Below, in pieces: positions 27,354 through 40,606 of a stretch of 41,559 bases of DNA. The position numbers and the translations under genes are program-made. Below the pieces are notes generated by a model that saw only the letters and a list, made by a program, of their open reading frames with translations, was not told the DNA's origin and ran no database searches. Origin of the DNA: Anaerolineales bacterium (GTDB lineage: Bacteria; Chloroflexota; Anaerolineae; Anaerolineales; UBA4823). Position 1 is the first letter of the stretch; each line of letters starts with the position of its first letter. Location: NCBI GenBank assembly GCA_035291705.1, contig DATDRM010000139.1, forward strand, positions 1 through 41,559, in the 5' to 3' direction.

Positions 27354-27988
27354 CGGTTGCCTCGCTGGTAGGCATCATACGTCTCTAAGAGGGTGATCTG
27401 GATCTGATCCGTAAAGGCGTTGATCTTCCGAAACATCTCACTCCAGGCGCTCGAGGAGTGGAGCGCTGCCGATTCGTATAAGCTGAGCATCGAGTCAACC
27501 AGCACATTGCGAAAAAAAAGAAAGGCGCGTGACGCCTCAGCTGCGCTTAACCCATACCGCCAGCCTCTGGAAGCGTACTCATAACCCAGAGAACGCGCTT
27601 CAGATTCAGCCGCGTCATCATCGGTAGTCAGATAACCTATCAGGCCTTGGAGCATGGCCCGGCCACTGAGCCGGTATTGAGCGCGAGCCTCCTCATCCAG
27701 CTTTTGATACCATTCTTGCGAAGCGAGTCGCCCTTCACTGATCTGCAACCGGATGCTCTTCAGGGCCTTCTGCACAACCAGGTAGCTCCCACTTGCCCCA
27801 TCCCTCTGGCGGGACTGGATCCAAAGCTCGATCTCGTTGCGCTTATAACGGCGATGTCCCCCCTGGGTGCGATGCGTGGGCAGGTGGCCTTGATCTGACC
27901 AGCTGCGTACCGTACTGGGGTGCACTCCCAGCATCTGGGCTGCTTCGCTCAAATTCAACCACTCGCTGGACATATTACGAAGGCTCAC
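27350..27988 (-). CDS. MerR/excisionase-type HTH protein with an uncharacterised helical C-terminal domain
   Basis: The HTH is WLNLSEAAQMLGVHPSTVRSWSDQGHLPTHRTQGGHRRYKRNEIELW. The C-terminal 140 aa are helical with no recognised motif. The start is GTG 27988 (14-nt overlap with the MFS gene) or ATG 27973. Confidence 0.7.
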   Translation of the reverse strand: MSLRNMSSEWLNLSEAAQMLGVHPSTVRSWSDQGHLPTHRTQGGHRRYKRNEIELWIQSRQRDGASGSYLVVQKALKSIRLQISEGRLASQEWYQKLDEEARAQYRLSGRAMLQGLIGYLTTDDDAAESEARSLGYEYASRGWRYGLSAAEASRAFLFFRNVLVDSMLSLYESAALHSSSAWSEMFRKINAFTDQIQITLLETYDAYQRGNR

Positions 27989-29282
27989 TGGCCAAAGCGG
28001 CGCGTTCGATCAATGCCGATGGCTGCGTACTCTCGCGAAAGGCAGCCACGTCAATCCGGCGCAGCAACAGCAAAGAGACAAACAACAGGGCGGCTTCGAC
28101 TCCAAAAACTACTGCATACGCCAGGACTGGGTTTGTGAGGACTTGCATCAAGATATCGCGCACAGCCCCACCCAACACGGAACCCACCAGTCGGGAAACC
28201 GCGTTGGCCATCCCCCAGGCGCCGATAAAAAGCCCAACCTTGCCGGCTGTGGTCATATCTAACATCAAGGACAGGTTGGCGACCGTGGAAAGACCGGTGC
28301 CGAATCCAAGCAAGACGACGCCGGAGTAAAACACGCTCCGATTAACGACGACTCCACTCAGTGCGATCAATACAAATCCCAGTAACGCCCCCCAGCCTCC
28401 CCAGGTTGCCACAAGGCGTTTGCTAAAACGCCTTTCCAAAGCTCCAGCGACCAGCAGGGCCAGCAGCGTAAAACCGCCCCATATCGAAGTGATGCGCGTC
28501 GTCGCCTGGACCGGCAACGAAAAAGCTTCTCCGCCAAAAGGTTCTAAAAGGATATCTTGCCCTAAGAGGGCTGTCAATAAAATGATCAGGTAAACGAAGA
28601 ACAGGGACGCCTGCCGGTTTTCCAGAATAACAGCCAGGGACTCCCCCCACGAATAGCGTTCTTCACCTTTCGTCTCAGCCAAAGCCGTTCGCTTTTCGAG
28701 TTTTAGCAAACCGATGCTGCCCAGGACCAGCGCAGCCAAACCCACGATCCAGAAAGACCGCACCAGCGCCTGTGGGGTATAGGGATTGACCAGCTGGCTC
28801 AACAGGATAGCTGTGCAAATGATGCTAACAATCATCATAAACCACATGGTGGCGATCGTCTTCCCCCGGCCGCTTTCTCCCGACAGTTCTGAGGCCAGGG
28901 AAAGATAGGAGACCGTTGCAAAGTTAAAACCCATCCCCCAGGCGCCGAAAGCGAACACGCCAAAGGCTAAACCAACCCAGCGGTCATCTGCAATGACAAA
29001 GGCAGCCAGTGGGGAAAGCACTACACCCAGCACGCATAGGGCTAATCCAAACAGAATATAAGGCGTTCGTCGCCAACCCCACAAGGGATGCCGGTCGGCA
29101 AACGAACCAATGATCACCTGGATCGGCGAGAACAGATAGGGCAGAGAGGCCAGGAGCGCTACCAGGGTTGCAGAGAGGGCCAGTTCTTTGATCATCACGC
29201 GGTTAAGCGTGCTGTTGATCGGCACCAGGGTCATCGCCACGGCGACGTGGATCAGGCCCAATTGAATACGCTTGATTAACAT
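27975..29282 (-). CDS. MFS transporter of the BCD / PucC (LhaA) family
   Basis: The N-terminus is IQLGLIHVAVAMTLVPINSTLNRVMIKELALSATLVALLASLPYLFSPIQVIIGSFADRHPLWGWRRTPYILFG. It follows the characteristic PucC pattern (GTLNRVMI.EL......V..L..L.....P....G..SD.......RR.PYI). It has 12 TM helices. Confidence 0.75.
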   Translation of the reverse strand: MLIKRIQLGLIHVAVAMTLVPINSTLNRVMIKELALSATLVALLASLPYLFSPIQVIIGSFADRHPLWGWRRTPYILFGLALCVLGVVLSPLAAFVIADDRWVGLAFGVFAFGAWGMGFNFATVSYLSLASELSGESGRGKTIATMWFMMIVSIICTAILLSQLVNPYTPQALVRSFWIVGLAALVLGSIGLLKLEKRTALAETKGEERYSWGESLAVILENRQASLFFVYLIILLTALLGQDILLEPFGGEAFSLPVQATTRITSIWGGFTLLALLVAGALERRFSKRLVATWGGWGALLGFVLIALSGVVVNRSVFYSGVVLLGFGTGLSTVANLSLMLDMTTAGKVGLFIGAWGMANAVSRLVGSVLGGAVRDILMQVLTNPVLAYAVVFGVEAALLFVSLLLLRRIDVAAFRESTQPSALIERAALASEPS

Positions 29283-33707: not shown

Positions 33708-35201
33708 TTAATTATCGCTTTCAGAGCCAGATGGCGCTTCACCCATCTCTTCCGTATCAGCGCTTACCACTTCTTCCATCTCAGCCGGCGCTTCGACCAT
33801 CTCTTCCATCTCTACGCTTTCCACCGCCTCAGGTTCAGGCGGCACCTCACCCATCTCTGCGCTCGCCACCACTTCAGGCTCCAGAGGCGCTTCGCTCATC
33901 TCTTCTGCCTGTGCGTCTACCTCCACCTGGGCCATTTCGGTCAAAGTGGGTGCGGCTTCTTCGCCGTGAGCTTCTTCGACCACCTCGGCCAGGGTGGTCT
34001 TCCAATCCAGGTCGGCGTATGCGGGTGAGTCAACTTTCCGCAGGCTTAGTCCGATGCGATGCCGCTCCGGTTCGATTTTGATCACTCGCAAGGTGAGTAC
34101 ATCCCCTTCGTGGACGACCTCTTTGGGATGTGCCACGCGCTGCTCGCTGAGTTCCGAGATATGGATCAGGCCCTCCATCTCTTCACCCAAACGGGCAAAA
34201 GCGCCAAACTTGGTCAGGTGGGTGATCGTCCCCTCCACCAGCTGCCCCTCGCGGATATGCTCCGTCTTTTTGACCCAGGGGTCCTCCTGGAGTTGGCGAA
34301 TGGACAGGCCAATGCGCTTGCGCTCGCGATCGATTCCGATGACCTTTACCTTGACTTCCTGTCCAACGCGCAACACCTCCTTGGGATGTTCAATCCGCTC
34401 CCAGGAGATTTCCGAGAGGTGCACCAGGCCATCTGCTCCATCAATATTGACGAAGGCGCCAAATTCGGCCAGGCTGGTAACCCGGCCAAGACGAATATCG
34501 CCCTCGGCCAACTCATCCAGTAAGCGCTCCTTGAGCGTCTCGCGCGTCTCCTGCAGTGCAGCCCGCTCCGAGAGGATCAAGCGCCGTCGTTCGCGATCCA
34601 CTTCGATCACCACCACCGTGATTGGGTCATTGACCATCGCCCCCCAGCGTTGTTCGGGGGTGCTTCCGCTAGCGTCCAAGCGCCGAAGCACGCTGACTTG
34701 TGAGGCCGGTACAAAGCCACGCAACTGGCCCATGGGTACGATCAGGCCGCCTTTATTGAAACCAATGATCTTACCTTCGTAGGACTTTCCCGAAGCCAGC
34801 AAGGATTCGGCGAGTTGCCAGTCTTGCTCTTCGAGGGCGCGCACATAAGACAGCTGCACAACGCCATTGGGATCCTCTGGATTCACCACGTAGACCGGGA
34901 TCTCCTGGCCAACGGCAAACGCCGCCCGCGCGGCCGAGTCGACTTGATCCAACTCGCGTGCTGGAATGATGCCCTCTGATTTTGTACCGATGCTGACCAA
35001 AACTTCGTTTTCGCCGATGCTGGCGATCACCCCCGTGCGAATCTCGCCTTGCTGTGGGAAGTCCAAACCCAGGCCTTGTTCCTCGAGTAAAGTCTCCATC
35101 GAGGCCTGTTTTTCGGTCGCTGGTTCTTGGTTTTGTTCTTCTAACGGTTGCCCGCTCTCAGCGAAAGCCTCCTGCCCAGTGGGGGCATTATTCTGGTCCA
35201 T
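33708..35201 (-). CDS. rpsA: 30S ribosomal protein S1 (four S1 domains) with an acidic C-terminal extension
   Basis: It has repeated S1 OB-fold motifs (G.V....G..V..G....G.IP.SE). The 497-aa protein has N- and C-terminal Glu-rich extensions. Confidence 0.85.
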   Translation of the reverse strand: MDQNNAPTGQEAFAESGQPLEEQNQEPATEKQASMETLLEEQGLGLDFPQQGEIRTGVIASIGENEVLVSIGTKSEGIIPARELDQVDSAARAAFAVGQEIPVYVVNPEDPNGVVQLSYVRALEEQDWQLAESLLASGKSYEGKIIGFNKGGLIVPMGQLRGFVPASQVSVLRRLDASGSTPEQRWGAMVNDPITVVVIEVDRERRRLILSERAALQETRETLKERLLDELAEGDIRLGRVTSLAEFGAFVNIDGADGLVHLSEISWERIEHPKEVLRVGQEVKVKVIGIDRERKRIGLSIRQLQEDPWVKKTEHIREGQLVEGTITHLTKFGAFARLGEEMEGLIHISELSEQRVAHPKEVVHEGDVLTLRVIKIEPERHRIGLSLRKVDSPAYADLDWKTTLAEVVEEAHGEEAAPTLTEMAQVEVDAQAEEMSEAPLEPEVVASAEMGEVPPEPEAVESVEMEEMVEAPAEMEEVVSADTEEMGEAPSGSESDN

Positions 35202-35318: not shown

Positions 35319-36413
35319 ATGCCACCCATCTATCCATTTACAGCCATCGTGGGCCAGGAGAGAATGAGGCGCGCCCTGGTCATGAACGCGGTTTCCCCGC
35401 GCATCGGCGGAGTGTTGATCCGCGGCGAGCGTGGGACCGCCAAATCAACCGCGGCGCGCGCCCTGGCGGCCTTGTTGCCCCACGTGCCAGTGGTTAAAGA
35501 CTGCCGTTTTGGTTGCGACCCCGACCGCCCCACCACCTGGTGCACAGAGTGCCGGGAGCGTTCCACCGGCGGCGATCCGCTGCCGGTAGAATTGAAGCCC
35601 ACGCCTTTCATTAACCTGCCCGTTTCGGCGACCGAAGACCGCGTCGTCGGGACACTCGACATCGAAAAGGCCATCCAGAAAGGCGAACGCCGCTTCGAAC
35701 CGGGCGTGCTCGCTGCCGCAAACCGCGGTATGCTCTACATCGACGAGGTCAACCTGCTGGACGATCACGTGGTGGATTTGTTGCTGGACTCGGCGGCGAT
35801 GGGCATGAACATCGTTGAACGCGAGGGCATCTCTTTCTCGCACCCTGCCCGCTTTATCCTGGTGGGCACGATGAACCCGGAGGAAGGCGACCTGCGCCCC
35901 CAGCTGCTCGACCGCTTCGCTTTGTCCGTCGAAATCCACGGCATTCGCGACGCCCGCGAGCGGGTCCTGATCATGGAACGCAACCTGGCCTTCGAGGCCG
36001 ATCCAGACGGCTTCCGCCACCAATGGCTGCCGCGCGAAGTAGACCTCTCACGCCAGATCGAACAGGCCCAGAAAATCCTCGAGGGAGTCACCTACACCCA
36101 GCGTGACCTGTTAGGGATTGCTGCTCTGACGGCCTCTCTGAACGTCGATGGCCATCGCTCCGACTTGGTGATCTTGAAAACCGCCCGCGCCCACGCAGCC
36201 TTCGAGGGGCGTACAGCCATCAGCGATCGGGATGTCGCCTTGGCGGCCGAGCTCGCCCTCCCCCACCGCATAAAACGCGGCCCATTCCAGCTGTCCGAAA
36301 TCACTATGGAAGACCTGCAAGAGCGCATCGATCAACTGCAGGGTGGGTCTTCGGCCGGCGAACCTGAGCCTGTGCCCGAAGAGCTCGAAACCATCGAAAA
36401 AAAAAAGGCGTAA
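35319..36413 (+). CDS. chlI: ChlI/BchI-type AAA+ chelatase subunit (Mg- or Co-chelatase medium subunit); zero-frame product
   Basis: Motifs are PFTAIVGQERMRRAL, Walker A GERGTAKST, MLYIDEVNLLDDHVVDLLLDSAAMGMNIVEREGISFSHPARFILVGTMNPEEGDLRPQLLDRF. A Cys4 insert (CRFGC-X9-CTEC) is present. The acidic tail EPEPVPEELETIEKKKA ends at TAA 36411..36413. Confidence 0.85.
   Translation: MPPIYPFTAIVGQERMRRALVMNAVSPRIGGVLIRGERGTAKSTAARALAALLPHVPVVKDCRFGCDPDRPTTWCTECRERSTGGDPLPVELKPTPFINLPVSATEDRVVGTLDIEKAIQKGERRFEPGVLAAANRGMLYIDEVNLLDDHVVDLLLDSAAMGMNIVEREGISFSHPARFILVGTMNPEEGDLRPQLLDRFALSVEIHGIRDARERVLIMERNLAFEADPDGFRHQWLPREVDLSRQIEQAQKILEGVTYTQRDLLGIAALTASLNVDGHRSDLVILKTARAHAAFEGRTAISDRDVALAAELALPHRIKRGPFQLSEITMEDLQERIDQLQGGSSAGEPEPVPEELETIEKKKA
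36401..36407 (+). promoter_or_regulatory. Candidate -1 ribosomal frameshift heptamer A_AAA_AAG inside an A10 run
   Basis: The zero frame reads GAA AAA AAA AAG GCG TAA. The As span 36397..36406. The -1 frame is open from 36368 to 37357. Confidence 0.5.
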
Positions 36414-37357
36414 GCCAGGAGATTCAGGAAGAGGGCTCTGACCAGGGTCCATTGAAGCCGACCCGGCAGAGCGTTTTCGATTCAGGCAATGCCACCTGGT
36501 GGGAGGGGGGTGAGAAGATCAAGATCGGCCAATCCTTTGCGCCGCGCAAACTTGACACCCCCCTGGATCATTTAACCCGCAAGAAAACCGGCCGGCGCTC
36601 GCGCACTCACACCGAGCGCAAGCGCGGGCGCTATATCCAATCCCGGCCAGCCAAGGGCGAGGCCGACGATCTAGCCTTCGATGCCACCCTGCGCGCTGCG
36701 GCTCCCTACCAGCACCAGCGCCGCGAGCAGCGCAAGCGAGTGGCTTTCGCTATTCAGCCCAGCGACTTCCAGCGCAAGGTGCGCGTCAAGCGCACCGCTA
36801 ACCTGGTGCTTTTCGTCGTGGACGCTTCCTGGTCGATGGCCGTAGCCGAGAGGATGGTCGCCACGAAGGGCGCTATCCTTTCCCTGCTCACCGATGCCTA
36901 CCAGCGCCGCGATCGCGTCGGGCTGATCGTCTTCCAAAAGGACCGCGCCACCATGGTGCTGCCCCCCACCAATTCGATCCAGCTGGCCCGCCGTGCCTTG
37001 GCCGATATCCCCGTCGGTGGGAAAACACCGCTTTCCGCCGGCCTGTACCTGGCGCACCAGATCATCTTTCGCGAGCGGACGCTCCATCCAGACGTGATGC
37101 CGTTGCTTATCCTGCTCACCGATGGAGCCGGCAACGTCTCCATGAGCGGCCTGCCCCCCCAGGCGGAGGCTCACCGCATCGCTGACCGGCTCACCGATGA
37201 CAGGATTCGCTGTGTGGTCATCAATATGGAACATGCAGCCTTCGACCAGGGGCTGGCCCAGGCCCTGGCCGAGCACCTGGCTGCCCCCTGCTACACCCTA
37301 AGCGAGCTGAAGGCCGAAAACCTGTACCGCGCCGTGCGCGAAGAGATGGGGGGATGA
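36407..37357 (+). CDS. chlD: VWA/MIDAS domain equivalent to the C-terminal half of ChlD/BchD; probably made as a -1 frameshift fusion to 35319..36407
   Basis: The MIDAS motif is VVDASWSM, followed by RDRVGLIVFQKDRATMVLPPTNS...IPVGGKTPLSAGL...LLILLTDGAGN. The only in-frame start before the domain is TTG 36452, which has no SD. The frame is continuous back into the A10 run. Confidence 0.6.
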   Translation, partial: GVSQEIQEEGSDQGPLKPTRQSVFDSGNATWWEGGEKIKIGQSFAPRKLDTPLDHLTRKKTGRRSRTHTERKRGRYIQSRPAKGEADDLAFDATLRAAAPYQHQRREQRKRVAFAIQPSDFQRKVRVKRTANLVLFVVDASWSMAVAERMVATKGAILSLLTDAYQRRDRVGLIVFQKDRATMVLPPTNSIQLARRALADIPVGGKTPLSAGLYLAHQIIFRERTLHPDVMPLLILLTDGAGNVSMSGLPPQAEAHRIADRLTDDRIRCVVINMEHAAFDQGLAQALAEHLAAPCYTLSELKAENLYRAVREEMGG

Positions 37358-37425
37358 AGCGTGATGCGTGATGCGTGATACGTAACGCGAGGCGTAAATT
37401 GAAAAAATGTCTAGATATTGCAGAA

Positions 37426-38937
37426 ATGAGTAAACAACTCTCATTTTTTTCAATATCCTCAATTCAATTGCTCATTCTACTCTTTACAACTGTTCTCGCT
37501 GCTTGCACCGAGGTTGGCGCCAGCCAGCCCCAGTCCACCACCACGCCGACCATCGCTCCACAGTCGTCTGCTCCTGTTAAAGCAACAGCCAGCCCATCCT
37601 CCCAGGCGATGCCCTCCCAGACTCCGCTCCAACCCGAGTTGCCCTTCAGCCAATACTCTCTGTCTGCCGTCCTGGACTATGATCTGCATTCCCTGACCGT
37701 GGAAGAGGGAATCCATTATGTGAACCACGCCAGCGCGCCGCTGCCCGACCTGCTCCTGCTGGTCGAACCTAATCGCTATCTCGGCGGGTTTACCCTGAAG
37801 GAGATTGCCTGGGAGGACGGCTCACCGGTCTCCGGCTATGCCCTGTCTGGCCCTGAACTGCGCCTGCCATTGGAACAACCTTTGCAGCCTGGAGCCAGCC
37901 TCGGCTTATCTTTATCCTATGAAATCAACCTTCCGCAACAGCTAGCGCCCTTCGGCTACACCGAGCGCCAGGCCAACCTGGGGAACTGGTATCCCTACGC
38001 CCCGCCTTTCACCCCCGGCGGGGGTTGGTTGGTGCGCGCCGACGCCGATTATGGAGAACATTTAGCATATGACATGGCCGACTTCCAGGTCGAGATCCGG
38101 CTGGCGCGTCCCTCCGCCGCCACCGGCGAGCCGCTGACGGTAGCAGCCAGTGCGCTGCCGCAAATCGACGGGGACACTTACCGTTACCGGCTGGCAGCGG
38201 CGCGCAACTTCGCCTGGTCGGTCAGCCACCTTTACCAGGTGCAGTCGGCGACCGTAGAAGGCATCACGGTGACCGCTTACTCCTTCCCTTTCCATCCATC
38301 GGCCGACGAACCGGCTCTGCTTGGGACAGCCAAAGCCCTGTCTGCCTTCAACGAACTGTTCAGCCCCTACCCGCACGACAGCCTGAGCGTGGTCGAGGGC
38401 GACTTCCTGGACGGCATGGAATACGATGGCCTGATCTTCTTGAGCCATGCCTTCTATGACTTCTATCCCGGCGATCAGAAGAGCAACCTGGCCCTCATCG
38501 CCGCCCACGAGGTCGCCCACCAGTGGTGGTATGGCCTGGTCGGCAATGACCAGGCCGACGAGCCCTGGCTAGACGAGGCGCTGAGCACCTACAGCGAGCT
38601 GTTATTCTATGAGAAGGTCTACCCCGACCTGGCAGACTGGTGGTGGCAGAACCGCATCTACTTCCATAAGCCGGAAGGGTGGGTGGACAGTTCGATCTAC
38701 GCCTACGGCCTTAATGACTTCTATCCCTATCGCAACGCCGTCTACTTGCGCGGAGCGCTGTTCCTGGGGGAATTGCGCCAGGTGATGGGGGACGAAGCCT
38801 TTTTTGATTTCCTGCACGACTACTTGGGTCAATTCACCTACCGCCAGGCCACCGGCGACGATTTTTTCGCCCTGCTGGCAGAGCATACCTCCGCCGACCT
38901 GAGCAACCTGATCGACGCTTACTTCGCCAACCGCTGA
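37426..38937 (+). CDS. M1-family (gluzincin) metallopeptidase lipoprotein, paralog 1
   Basis: The lipobox is LFTTVLAAC. An S/T/P-rich linker follows. The zinc site is AAHEVAHQWWYGLVGNDQADEPWLDEALSTY (HExxH-X18-E). Confidence 0.8.
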   Translation: MSKQLSFFSISSIQLLILLFTTVLAACTEVGASQPQSTTTPTIAPQSSAPVKATASPSSQAMPSQTPLQPELPFSQYSLSAVLDYDLHSLTVEEGIHYVNHASAPLPDLLLLVEPNRYLGGFTLKEIAWEDGSPVSGYALSGPELRLPLEQPLQPGASLGLSLSYEINLPQQLAPFGYTERQANLGNWYPYAPPFTPGGGWLVRADADYGEHLAYDMADFQVEIRLARPSAATGEPLTVAASALPQIDGDTYRYRLAAARNFAWSVSHLYQVQSATVEGITVTAYSFPFHPSADEPALLGTAKALSAFNELFSPYPHDSLSVVEGDFLDGMEYDGLIFLSHAFYDFYPGDQKSNLALIAAHEVAHQWWYGLVGNDQADEPWLDEALSTYSELLFYEKVYPDLADWWWQNRIYFHKPEGWVDSSIYAYGLNDFYPYRNAVYLRGALFLGELRQVMGDEAFFDFLHDYLGQFTYRQATGDDFFALLAEHTSADLSNLIDAYFANR

Positions 38938-38965: not shown

Positions 38966-40606
38966 ATGAACACGGAAATCAGGGATAATAGAAAAGGCTT
39001 CTCTAAAATCAGTGTAATTCCGCGCAAATCCGTGAACCATACTTCCCATTATTTGCTCCCCGCGCGGCTGTTGCTGATTCTGGCCATACTTGTCATCTTT
39101 TTTACAGCCTGCACGAGCCAGGTCCCCGCGCCGGCGACATCCATCTCACCCGGCCTAACTCAAACCACTCCACCGCCCGAAGCAAGGGCTATCACGGAAA
39201 CAGCGCTTCCCCCCACCCAGACTCAATCTCCGACTGCCTCCCCCATCGCCGGCGATCCGCTGGCCACTCCCCCGCCAGAAGAAGAAAAGAACCCTAACAC
39301 CCAATATATCCTCACCGTCGAAATGGATTACGCCCGCCACCACTTGACGGTCGCAGAGCAAATCGTTTATACCAATCGTTCGGCCGAGCGAAGCTCGACC
39401 GAGCCAATTCCCGATCTGCTGCTGATCGTCGAGCCGACACGCTACCCGGCCGTGTTCCATCTGAAGAGCCTGTCCTGGCAGGACGGGCGGCCCGTCGAAG
39501 ACTACCAGCAGGATCTCGGGCAGTTGCACATCCCCCTGCCGCAGCCCCTGCCTCTCGGTGAGGCAGTGACCCTATCGATATCTTACGAACTGGACCTGCC
39601 CTCCCCCGACCCGACTTTTTATGGGCGGCCGGTGCCCTTCGGCTACTCCCCTCGCCAGGCCAACCTGGTCGACTGGTACCCTTTCCTGCCCCCCTATCTC
39701 CCCGGGCAGGGCTGGCAGGCGCACCAGGCCGGCCCCTTCGGCGAACATCTCGTGTACGAATCTGCTGATTTCCAGGTGAACATCCGCCTCGAAGATTCCA
39801 ACCAGGATCTGCTCATTGCCGCCAGCGCACCCGCCGCGCGCGATGGGGACTGGTATCGCTACCGGCACGCCTCGGCCCGCAACTTCGCCTGGTCGGTCAG
39901 CGACCAGTACGTGGTGTCCACGGCCCAAGTTGGCCCGCTGACGGTCCTGGGCTACGCCTTCCCGGTAAACGCCGCGGCCGGCGAGACCGCCCTGCAGGCG
40001 ACCGCCGATGCCCTGGTTCTCTTCAACGACCTGTACGGCCCGTATCCTCATGAGACTTTAACGCTCGTCGAAGCCGACTTCCTGGACGGCATGGAGTACG
40101 ACGGCCTGTACTTCCTGAGCAAGGGCTTCTACAACCTGTACTCCGGCACACCGGCGGATTATCTTACTGCCATCGCCGCCCACGAGACCGCCCACCAGTG
40201 GTGGTACGGCCTGGTGGGCAACGACCAGGCCCTCGAACCCTGGCTGGACGAAGCCCTGTGCACCTATAGCGAGCGCATCTTCTACGAAAACCTGCACCCC
40301 GAGGCGCTCGATTGGTGGTGGACCTATCGCATAAACTACTTTAAGCCGGAAGGCTGGGTGGATGGCAGCATCTACAACCCGCAGGGATACCGCGCTTACC
40401 ACCACGCCGTCTATCTCAACGGGGCCGTGTTCCTGGAGGACCTGCGCCAGGCGATCGGCGATCAGGCTTTCTTCGCTTTTCTTTCGGGCTATGCTGAGCA
40501 GTACACTCACCGGGTGGCGACGGGCGATGATTTCTTTGCCATGCTGGGGAACCACAGCATGACCGATTTAACGCTTCTGCTCGACGAGTATTTTCAGAAC
40601 CATTGA
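38966..40606 (+). CDS. M1-family (gluzincin) metallopeptidase lipoprotein, paralog 2
   Basis: The lipobox is VIFFTAC. A P/T-rich linker follows. The zinc site is AAHETAHQWWYGLVGNDQALEPWLDEALCTY. It is collinear with paralog 1 over the whole catalytic region. Confidence 0.8.
   Translation: MNTEIRDNRKGFSKISVIPRKSVNHTSHYLLPARLLLILAILVIFFTACTSQVPAPATSISPGLTQTTPPPEARAITETALPPTQTQSPTASPIAGDPLATPPPEEEKNPNTQYILTVEMDYARHHLTVAEQIVYTNRSAERSSTEPIPDLLLIVEPTRYPAVFHLKSLSWQDGRPVEDYQQDLGQLHIPLPQPLPLGEAVTLSISYELDLPSPDPTFYGRPVPFGYSPRQANLVDWYPFLPPYLPGQGWQAHQAGPFGEHLVYESADFQVNIRLEDSNQDLLIAASAPAARDGDWYRYRHASARNFAWSVSDQYVVSTAQVGPLTVLGYAFPVNAAAGETALQATADALVLFNDLYGPYPHETLTLVEADFLDGMEYDGLYFLSKGFYNLYSGTPADYLTAIAAHETAHQWWYGLVGNDQALEPWLDEALCTYSERIFYENLHPEALDWWWTYRINYFKPEGWVDGSIYNPQGYRAYHHAVYLNGAVFLEDLRQAIGDQAFFAFLSGYAEQYTHRVATGDDFFAMLGNHSMTDLTLLLDEYFQNH

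Follow-up and report, generated by a model that had tools for sequence, protein, structure and literature searches.

Organization of the locus

Contig DATDRM010000139.1 of assembly GCA_035291705.1, from an Anaerolineales bacterium, was analyzed over a stretch of 41,559 nucleotides (nt), referred to here as the window. On its forward strand, at 35319..37357, lies a chlD-like gene with a run of ten adenines (A10) in the linker between its two halves, and its sequence suggests, with a probability that we consider high, that this single gene gives rise to two proteins by programmed slippage on that run. All features of the gene described below are on the same strand.

The zero frame is open reading frame 1 (ORF1, 35319..36413), which encodes a ChlI-like AAA+ ATPase of 364 amino acids (aa) and 40.2 kDa, the expected product of standard decoding. 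It appears in the ORF list, is matched in Pfam by Mg_chelatase, AAA_5 and AAA_lid_2, and contains a Walker A motif (35424..35450), a Walker B motif (35733..35759) and the arginine-finger sequence LLDRF (35904..35918). Its 3' end reads ATC GAA AAA AAA AAG GCG TAA, so that the A10 run occupies 36397..36406, an A_AAA_AAG heptamer in the phase of the zero frame occupies 36401..36407 as a candidate site for tandem -1 tRNA slippage, and the TAA stop that ends the short product (36411..36413) lies 4 nt past the run. The -1 frame is open from 36368, directly after a TGA at 36365..36367, to its own TGA stop at 37355..37357, and the two frames overlap in a 46-nt "frameshift box" (36368..36413). Beyond the run, the -1 frame (36407..37357) continues through an acidic linker, a WW motif (36491..36511) and an AAPxQ region (36695..36712) into a VWA domain, matched in Pfam by VWA_2 and VWA, with the MIDAS motif DxSxS present as DASWS (36821..36835) and a TDGAGN sequence within 37112..37135. 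A preliminary description, prepared from the letters of the window alone, had already placed the end of ORF1, the run, the heptamer and the open VWA frame at these positions, and reading of the sequence, the ORF list, the Pfam matches and the DASWS motif all bear it out.

The A10 run is present once and is the longest homopolymer of the window, where shuffled sequences lead one to expect 0.12. Since it also falls within the 46-nt overlap, and since long adenine runs are rare in the flanks of this gene (627 kb around the orthologous site at 81 loci contain two A9 runs and none of A10 or longer), its presence at the junction is unlikely to be due to chance.

Architecture of the predicted fused product

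A single conceptual -1 slip on the run produces ...ELETIEKKKGVSQEIQEEGSDQGPLKPT..., a protein of 679 aa and 75.4 kDa with an AAA+ module, acidic linker, AAPxQ region and VWA/MIDAS domain in that order. The earlier proposal that a slipped product of about 679 aa would have the ChlD architecture is upheld by alignments that run end to end across two family models. Residues 5-661 cover positions 1-640 of the 641 in TIGR02442, "putative cobaltochelatase", at 773.4 bits, which misses the curated cut-off of 779.45 marginally despite the complete alignment, and positions 1-606 of 608 in TIGR02031 (BchD-ChlD) are covered at 441.2 bits, below the cut-off of 499.55. The score against TIGR02030 (BchI-ChlI), 419.1 bits, is likewise below its cut-off of 466.95. 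Protein homologues of 636-736 aa are collinear with 92-100% of the fused product. The 120 best of them are in-frame proteins, mostly of 665-700 aa, in a ranking by fused query that favors full-length matches. At the position of the A10 run, within an acidic linker that is otherwise hypervariable, these homologues almost invariably have KKK (sometimes KKN, KKT, KKR or KKS).

In domain content and order, and in matching the models over their full length, the window gene resembles both the canonical BchI/ChlI plus BchD/ChlD pair and the in-frame TIGR02442 proteins. In canonical Mg-chelatase, however, the small subunit comes from a separate gene, whereas here the small product does not. The window gene also differs from the canonical pair in a Cys4 insert, in a Walker A motif containing GERGTAKS, in having no ChlH or CobN nearby, and in scores that fall below all three NCBIfam cut-offs. 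The Cys4 insert, C-x3-C-x9-C-x2-C (CRFGCDPDRPTTWCTEC, 35502..35552, forward strand), lies in the AAA+ module of ORF1; the pattern is present in the commonest homologue variants as well and may be a zinc ribbon. In the Walker A motif, GERGTAKST, alanine replaces the glycine that precedes the lysine in the P-loop consensus, while Walker B and the arginine finger are intact. The alanine variant is found in 113 of 121 family members, and the canonical glycine in 7.

Conservation of the junction in Anaerolineales

Two unbiased scans with an alignment of the VWA part gave 80 loci among GTDB species representatives and another 80 among JGI metagenome contigs; nearly all of these are labelled Anaerolineales, Anaerolineae or Chloroflexota. 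Frames were assigned by tblastn with the N- and C-terminal parts of the window product, and removal of duplicates left 150 distinct loci, including the window. The -1 arrangement is present in 132 of these (88%), a +1 arrangement in 15 (10%), and the two parts are in frame in the remaining 3. All 150 loci have an adenine run of 8 to 14 at the junction, most often 9 or 10 (142 loci) and never shorter than 8. A zero-frame stop follows within 8 nt of the run in 122 of the 132 -1 loci and within 25 nt in every one of them. The comparison of orthologues that had been suggested for this gene thus shows both a conserved run and a conserved nearby stop. An in-phase A_AAA_AAG occurs in 89 of the -1 loci; the heptamers of the remaining 43 are limited to A_AAA_AAA and A_AAA_AAC.

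Lysine codons elsewhere in these genes are AAA in 50% of cases. Together with the near-absence of long adenine runs in the flanking DNA and the saturation of synonymous sites described below, this argues that the tract is held by selection as nucleotides.

The +1 loci include a clade with the arrangement GAT-A10-GACCTAA, which reads GAT AAA AAA AAA AGA CCT. Its members are three genome-representative loci (L004, L006 and L007) and, in four metagenome datasets, five contigs (L106-L109 and L116). A relative of this clade with A11 (L111) has the usual -1 configuration and an immediate TAA. Seven in-frame lineages whose DNA was examined retain A9 to A11, and where checked, both alternative frames stop 4-52 nt downstream. 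Assemblies of one species can also differ in configuration: a locus with A11 in frame (L184) and two with A10 in the -1 state (L102 and L104) are 99.8% identical over 2598 nt, with the run as the single gap. Either the length of the tract is truly polymorphic in this species, or the difference arose as noise during assembly.

The existence of in-frame homologues, and of one same-species pair that differs solely in A10 versus A11, gives some substance to the idea, raised in the preliminary description, that the window gene is an ordinary in-frame chlD with A11 whose homopolymer was misread in sequencing or assembly. We give this hardly any credence, and for the window we reject it on comparison with other assemblies. 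Nine further contigs, drawn from ENA, JGI and NCBI samples, have the exact 364-aa ORF1 together with a separately called VWA ORF, and a JGI scan added three more contigs of the same species with A10. At least ten other contigs carry both the exact ORF1 and A10, and every same-species contig that reaches the site (L089-L093, L095, L097 and L098-L100) has A10. A search of 5.8 billion clusters returned no in-frame protein more than 85% identical to the fused product of the window. Finally, the -1 state with a stop directly past the run predominates across the 150 related loci, and is thus the majority condition in the order.

Selection on both parts and probable expression of the VWA frame

The ratio of nonsynonymous to synonymous substitution rates (dN/dS) ranges from 0.10 to 0.14 in the VWA part and from 0.07 to 0.11 in the AAA+ part. 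Synonymous sites are saturated (dS >1), so that these values are only approximate or upper bounds, and dS to the two closest species is undefined for the same reason. At the sequence level, both halves are under strong purifying selection, with dN/dS near 0.1. That the VWA part has a value similar to that of the AAA+ part argues that it is expressed, even though it has no start of its own.

Interruption of the gene is what one would expect of a decaying pseudogene, in which a frameshift mutation had inactivated chlD. The low dN/dS speaks against this, as do a downstream frame that in virtually every relative has no stop over about 950 nt and the retention of MIDAS and Walker motifs among homologues, and decay is the least credible of the explanations that we considered.

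Gene callers annotate the downstream frame as a separate 301-aa ORF starting from TTG 36452, which raises the alternative of two genes, with the VWA protein initiating at that codon or by termination-reinitiation past the TAA. The preliminary description had stated that the frame has no ATG or GTG before the domain, and only a TTG that lacks a Shine-Dalgarno (SD) sequence. The frame is indeed without any ATG, and TTG 36452, its first possible start, has no SD; the statement fails for GTG, which occurs in frame at 36740 and 36779 ahead of the Pfam VWA match. Neither GTG has an SD, and starts at either would lose conserved residues. Among 70 relatives, 40 have no ATG, GTG or TTG at all in the VWA frame between its upstream stop and the WW motif, and an SD-preceded ATG or GTG is present in only 4, so that orthologues mostly do not show the independent VWA starts that would have spoken for a second gene. 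The stretch from the run to the TTG is itself coding-like and aligns to in-frame homologues, and the full-length model matches cross the junction. With no conserved start codons, independent initiation of the VWA part was rejected, and we regard two separate genes as very improbable. For annotation, the 364-aa and 301-aa ORF calls should be merged into one recoded gene, and the locus should be taken neither for an assembly error nor for a pseudogene.

Variation of the run between close relatives could also mean that replication slippage toggles the full-length protein by phase variation at the DNA level alone, with no recoding. Very close relatives do differ in run length (A10 and A11 in the pair at 99.8% identity, and A9 and A10 between relatives at 93% nucleotide identity), and the family contains all three configurations. 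Otherwise, however, a lineage keeps its run length from one sample to the next: the run is always A10 in the window species, A10 in 4 of 4 contigs of the P0001 lineage and A9 in 4 of 4 contigs of the P0004 lineage. In -1 lineages, moreover, the VWA part has been strongly purified through saturated synonymous divergence, which requires that it be expressed from the -1 configuration. Phase variation on its own is therefore unlikely in the extreme, if slightly less so than a second gene.

Two proposed products from one gene

From this anatomy, its conservation and the selection on both parts, we infer the following scheme of expression. Standard expression through GAA AAA AAA AAG GCG to the TAA would yield the 364-aa ChlI-like AAA+ ATPase. 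Some of the time, a single base would in effect be read twice, either through a stutter of RNA polymerase on the tract that creates an A11 transcript or through a ribosome that slips -1 on A_AAA_AAG. From there, the -1 frame would be read across the acidic linker and on to the end of the VWA/MIDAS part to give the 679-aa ChlD-like protein, with the identical sequence ...IEKKKGVSQE... by either route. The N-terminal AAA+ module would be common to both products, which presumably, by analogy with ChlI/ChlD, assemble in one complex in a ratio set by the frequency of the slip. The proposal in the preliminary description that one gene makes a ChlI-type and a ChlD-type product by slippage is in this way supported by the comparative evidence and matches the literature. 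The gene would add one more clean example of a single gene with a fixed-ratio output of two subunits.

Which machine slips is a narrower question. Within the two-product scheme, we put the chance that RNA polymerase slippage is the main contributor at somewhat better than even, and consider ribosomal -1 frameshifting the less likely route. Four features of the genes favor the polymerase. The first is the lack of a conserved downstream structure: when the 60 nt past the run were folded for 70 relatives, the mean z score against shuffled sequences was -0.37, compared with -0.14 for control windows, and thus showed no excess stability. The sole hairpin of the window begins 28 nt downstream of the run (z = -1.6) and is not conserved, and a consensus fold of 14 close relatives reaches only -3.0 kcal/mol, with no conserved or covarying helix. 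The stimulatory hairpin that the preliminary description had proposed to look for was thus not found as a conserved element in any of these three analyses. Second, a ribosome would need no more than a heptamer, yet no run has fewer than 8 adenines. Third, 43 of the 132 -1 sites have no A_AAA_AAG. Fourth, -1, +1 and in-frame genes all keep the tract, and mixed frameshift direction within a family is the criterion for transcriptional realignment given by Antonov et al. in 2013 (PMC3711429).

A purely ribosomal, dnaX-type -1 frameshift on A_AAA_AAG would leave the two-product scheme intact, since it differs only in the slipping machine. The earlier label "dnaX-type" holds in that the heptamer is present and in phase; it fails in that neither a conserved downstream hairpin, at 5-9 nt or elsewhere, nor an SD-like element accompanies it, with sequence reading revealing nothing GGAGG-like or SD-like upstream of the site in the window. 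A scan of the whole window with Rfam gave nothing at gathering thresholds. The property that is conserved is a run of at least 8 or 9 adenines rather than the heptamer, relatives in +1 and in-frame configurations retain the same tract, and reporter efficiency climbs with run length: in Escherichia coli, Mg-chelatase poly-A cassettes yielded 63% frameshifted product with A11, 40% with A9 and 10% with A7 (PMC3711429). We consider an exclusively ribosomal mechanism less likely than slippage by the polymerase.

Several points weigh against slippage by RNA polymerase, or against the two-product scheme as a whole. The in-phase A_AAA_AAG of the window, shared by 89 of the 132 -1 sites, is what a ribosomal mechanism would want, and published papers call the chlD signal ribosomal frameshifting; a review by Atkins et al. 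(NAR 2016, PMC5009743) describes A_AAA_AAR as being under strong purifying selection. The AAA_AGA of the +1 clade, judged by sequence, could be a ribosomal +1 site. Related loci are phylogenetically non-independent, so that the counts given above overstate the number of independent observations. The same-species pair that differs solely in A10 versus A11 indicates that not every difference in run length between assemblies need be a fixed state; some may stem from noise in assembly or from polymorphism of the DNA itself. Finally, two products in this organism are deduced from the gene sequence and not from direct observation.

Two possible ways of telling the machines apart were considered and rejected. 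How the run is phased against the zero frame is uninformative, since any run of at least 9 adenines holds an in-phase heptamer, and mass spectrometry of the junction peptide cannot discriminate, as ...EKKKGVSQ... would result from A11 transcripts and from ribosomal -1 slippage alike. Because the protein is the same, only transcript sequencing separates the two mechanisms.

Relation to known systems

The window gene is an instance of the published frameshifted chlD (fs-chlD) system, which is already known, including in Anaerolineaceae. A "magnesium chelatase" cluster, made up of 23 genes with -1 frameshifts and poly-A sites, was presented by Antonov et al. (NAR 2013, PMC3711429), who also confirmed slippage in E. 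coli. Kuznetsov, Milenkin and Antonov (2022) reported fs-chlD from several Chloroflexi, among them Brevefilum fermentans, Anaerolinea thermophila UNI-1, Ornatilinea, Longilinea and Levilinea (PMC9227772). In our own collection, a metagenome-assembled genome of A. thermophila (L048) has GTA AAA AAA AAG TAA at the orthologous site. A report by Antonov (Mol Biol Evol 2020;37:2268, doi 10.1093/molbev/msaa081), which the preliminary description named as showing that some cobalt-chelatase chlD genes behave in this way, does exist and is cited as reference 16 of PMC9227772 and reference 23 of PMC10732093.

As in the published system, the overlap between the AAA+ and VWA ORFs lies at a poly-A or A_AAA_AAR site, the -1 configuration predominates, and the two ORFs are jointly collinear with full-length ChlD. 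The short product is the N terminus of the long one, the zero-frame stop comes soon after the site, and the gene is annotated as two adjacent genes. Nothing essential differs. Stimulatory downstream RNA structures are usual in published fs-chlD genes but not obligatory (PMC9227772), whereas none was found conserved in the Anaerolineales clade, and the role in cobalt chelation that has been proposed for genomes with cobN cannot be taken for granted in the window.

Two dnaX genes offer further comparisons. The tau/gamma signal of E. coli dnaX likewise uses A_AAA_AAG and generates two products with a common N-terminal AAA+ module that, in dnaX, assemble in one complex. There, however, the zero frame leads to the longer protein and the shift to the shorter, opposite to the situation in the window gene. 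E. coli dnaX also relies on two stimulators, an SD-like element ahead of the site and a hairpin shortly after it (PMC3711429), neither of which is conserved in the window clade. Closer in its signal is the transcriptional slippage of Thermus thermophilus dnaX on A9, together with two-ORF dnaX genes that have A10 (PMC3711429): 9 to 10 adenines are the sole conserved signal, stimulators are not needed, and the configuration varies between orthologues. Thermus dnaX belongs to another gene family, and transcript heterogeneity has been demonstrated for it, whereas the Anaerolineales chlD is known here from genes alone.

What is new here is evidence on mechanism. The absence of a conserved hairpin, a run that is never below 8 adenines, and a +1 clade and in-frame lineages that keep the tract would favor RNA polymerase slippage over a dnaX-type shift. 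A tract of at least 8 adenines that persists in three configurations without stimulators may help to decide between transcriptional and translational slippage in this family. Residual interest lies in that evidence, in the persistence of the tract in in-frame genes, and in what a ChlI/ChlD-like pair does without ChlH or CobN, a question already flagged in the literature. A broader reading, which we hold only tentatively and at somewhat less than even probability, would join these strands: Anaerolineales would slip mainly by RNA polymerase on A9 to A10, the tract would work in -1, +1 and in-frame genes alike, in-frame chlD-like genes that bear it would be hidden two-product genes invisible to frameshift finders, and the I/D-like pair would work without a large subunit and not as a chelatase.

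Genomic context and other features of the window

No ORF of the window exceeds 835 aa, and there is no large chelatase subunit among the Pfam matches of the 28 flanking ORFs, in agreement with the preliminary description, which had seen neither ChlH nor CobN. When neighboring ORFs of 80 relatives were clustered, with most clusters judged by eye, no obvious CobN was recurrent, nor did the clusters reveal a conserved functional partner. Among Chloroflexi with fs-chlD, "stage 1" species such as Brevefilum are reported to have no large subunit and neither the B12 nor the chlorophyll pathway, and the four Anaerolineaceae species also have a separate chlI (PMC9227772). Given the absence of CobN and ChlH from the window and the several fs-chlD Chloroflexi that lack the large subunit and both pathways, the cobalt-chelatase role suggested in the preliminary description is not supported here.

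The chlD-like gene is flanked by divergently transcribed S1 and ClpC genes on one side and by two M1-peptidase-like paralogues on the other. This order of S1, ClpC and M1-peptidase genes is common to close relatives and is not conserved further out. Additional neighbors, judged by eye, resemble a dipeptidase, a diguanylate cyclase, NadD and an aminotransferase. On the reverse strand, some 6 kb away from the chlD-like gene, is a PUCC-family major facilitator superfamily protein (27975..29279, PF03209, 297.6 bits, no NCBIfam match). The PUCC family is associated with bacteriochlorophyll delivery and the assembly of light-harvesting complexes; the Anaerolineales host that bears it here looks nonphototrophic.

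Directly past the stop of the chlD-like gene, three tandem copies of the heptamer GCGTGAT, the last of them imperfect, occupy 37358..37380 on the forward strand. They overlap the listed GTG start of the next ORF, whose true start is therefore probably further downstream. This ORF and the one after it (37375..38937 and 38966..40606, forward strand) are the tandem paralogous Peptidase_M1-like genes, both with HExxH, in an arrangement common to close relatives; from sequence, their N termini look like signal or lipoprotein sequences. On the other side, the ribosomal protein S1 homologue (33708..35201, reverse strand) has, in translation, a long repetitive acidic C-terminal tail with repeats rich in E, M, A and P.

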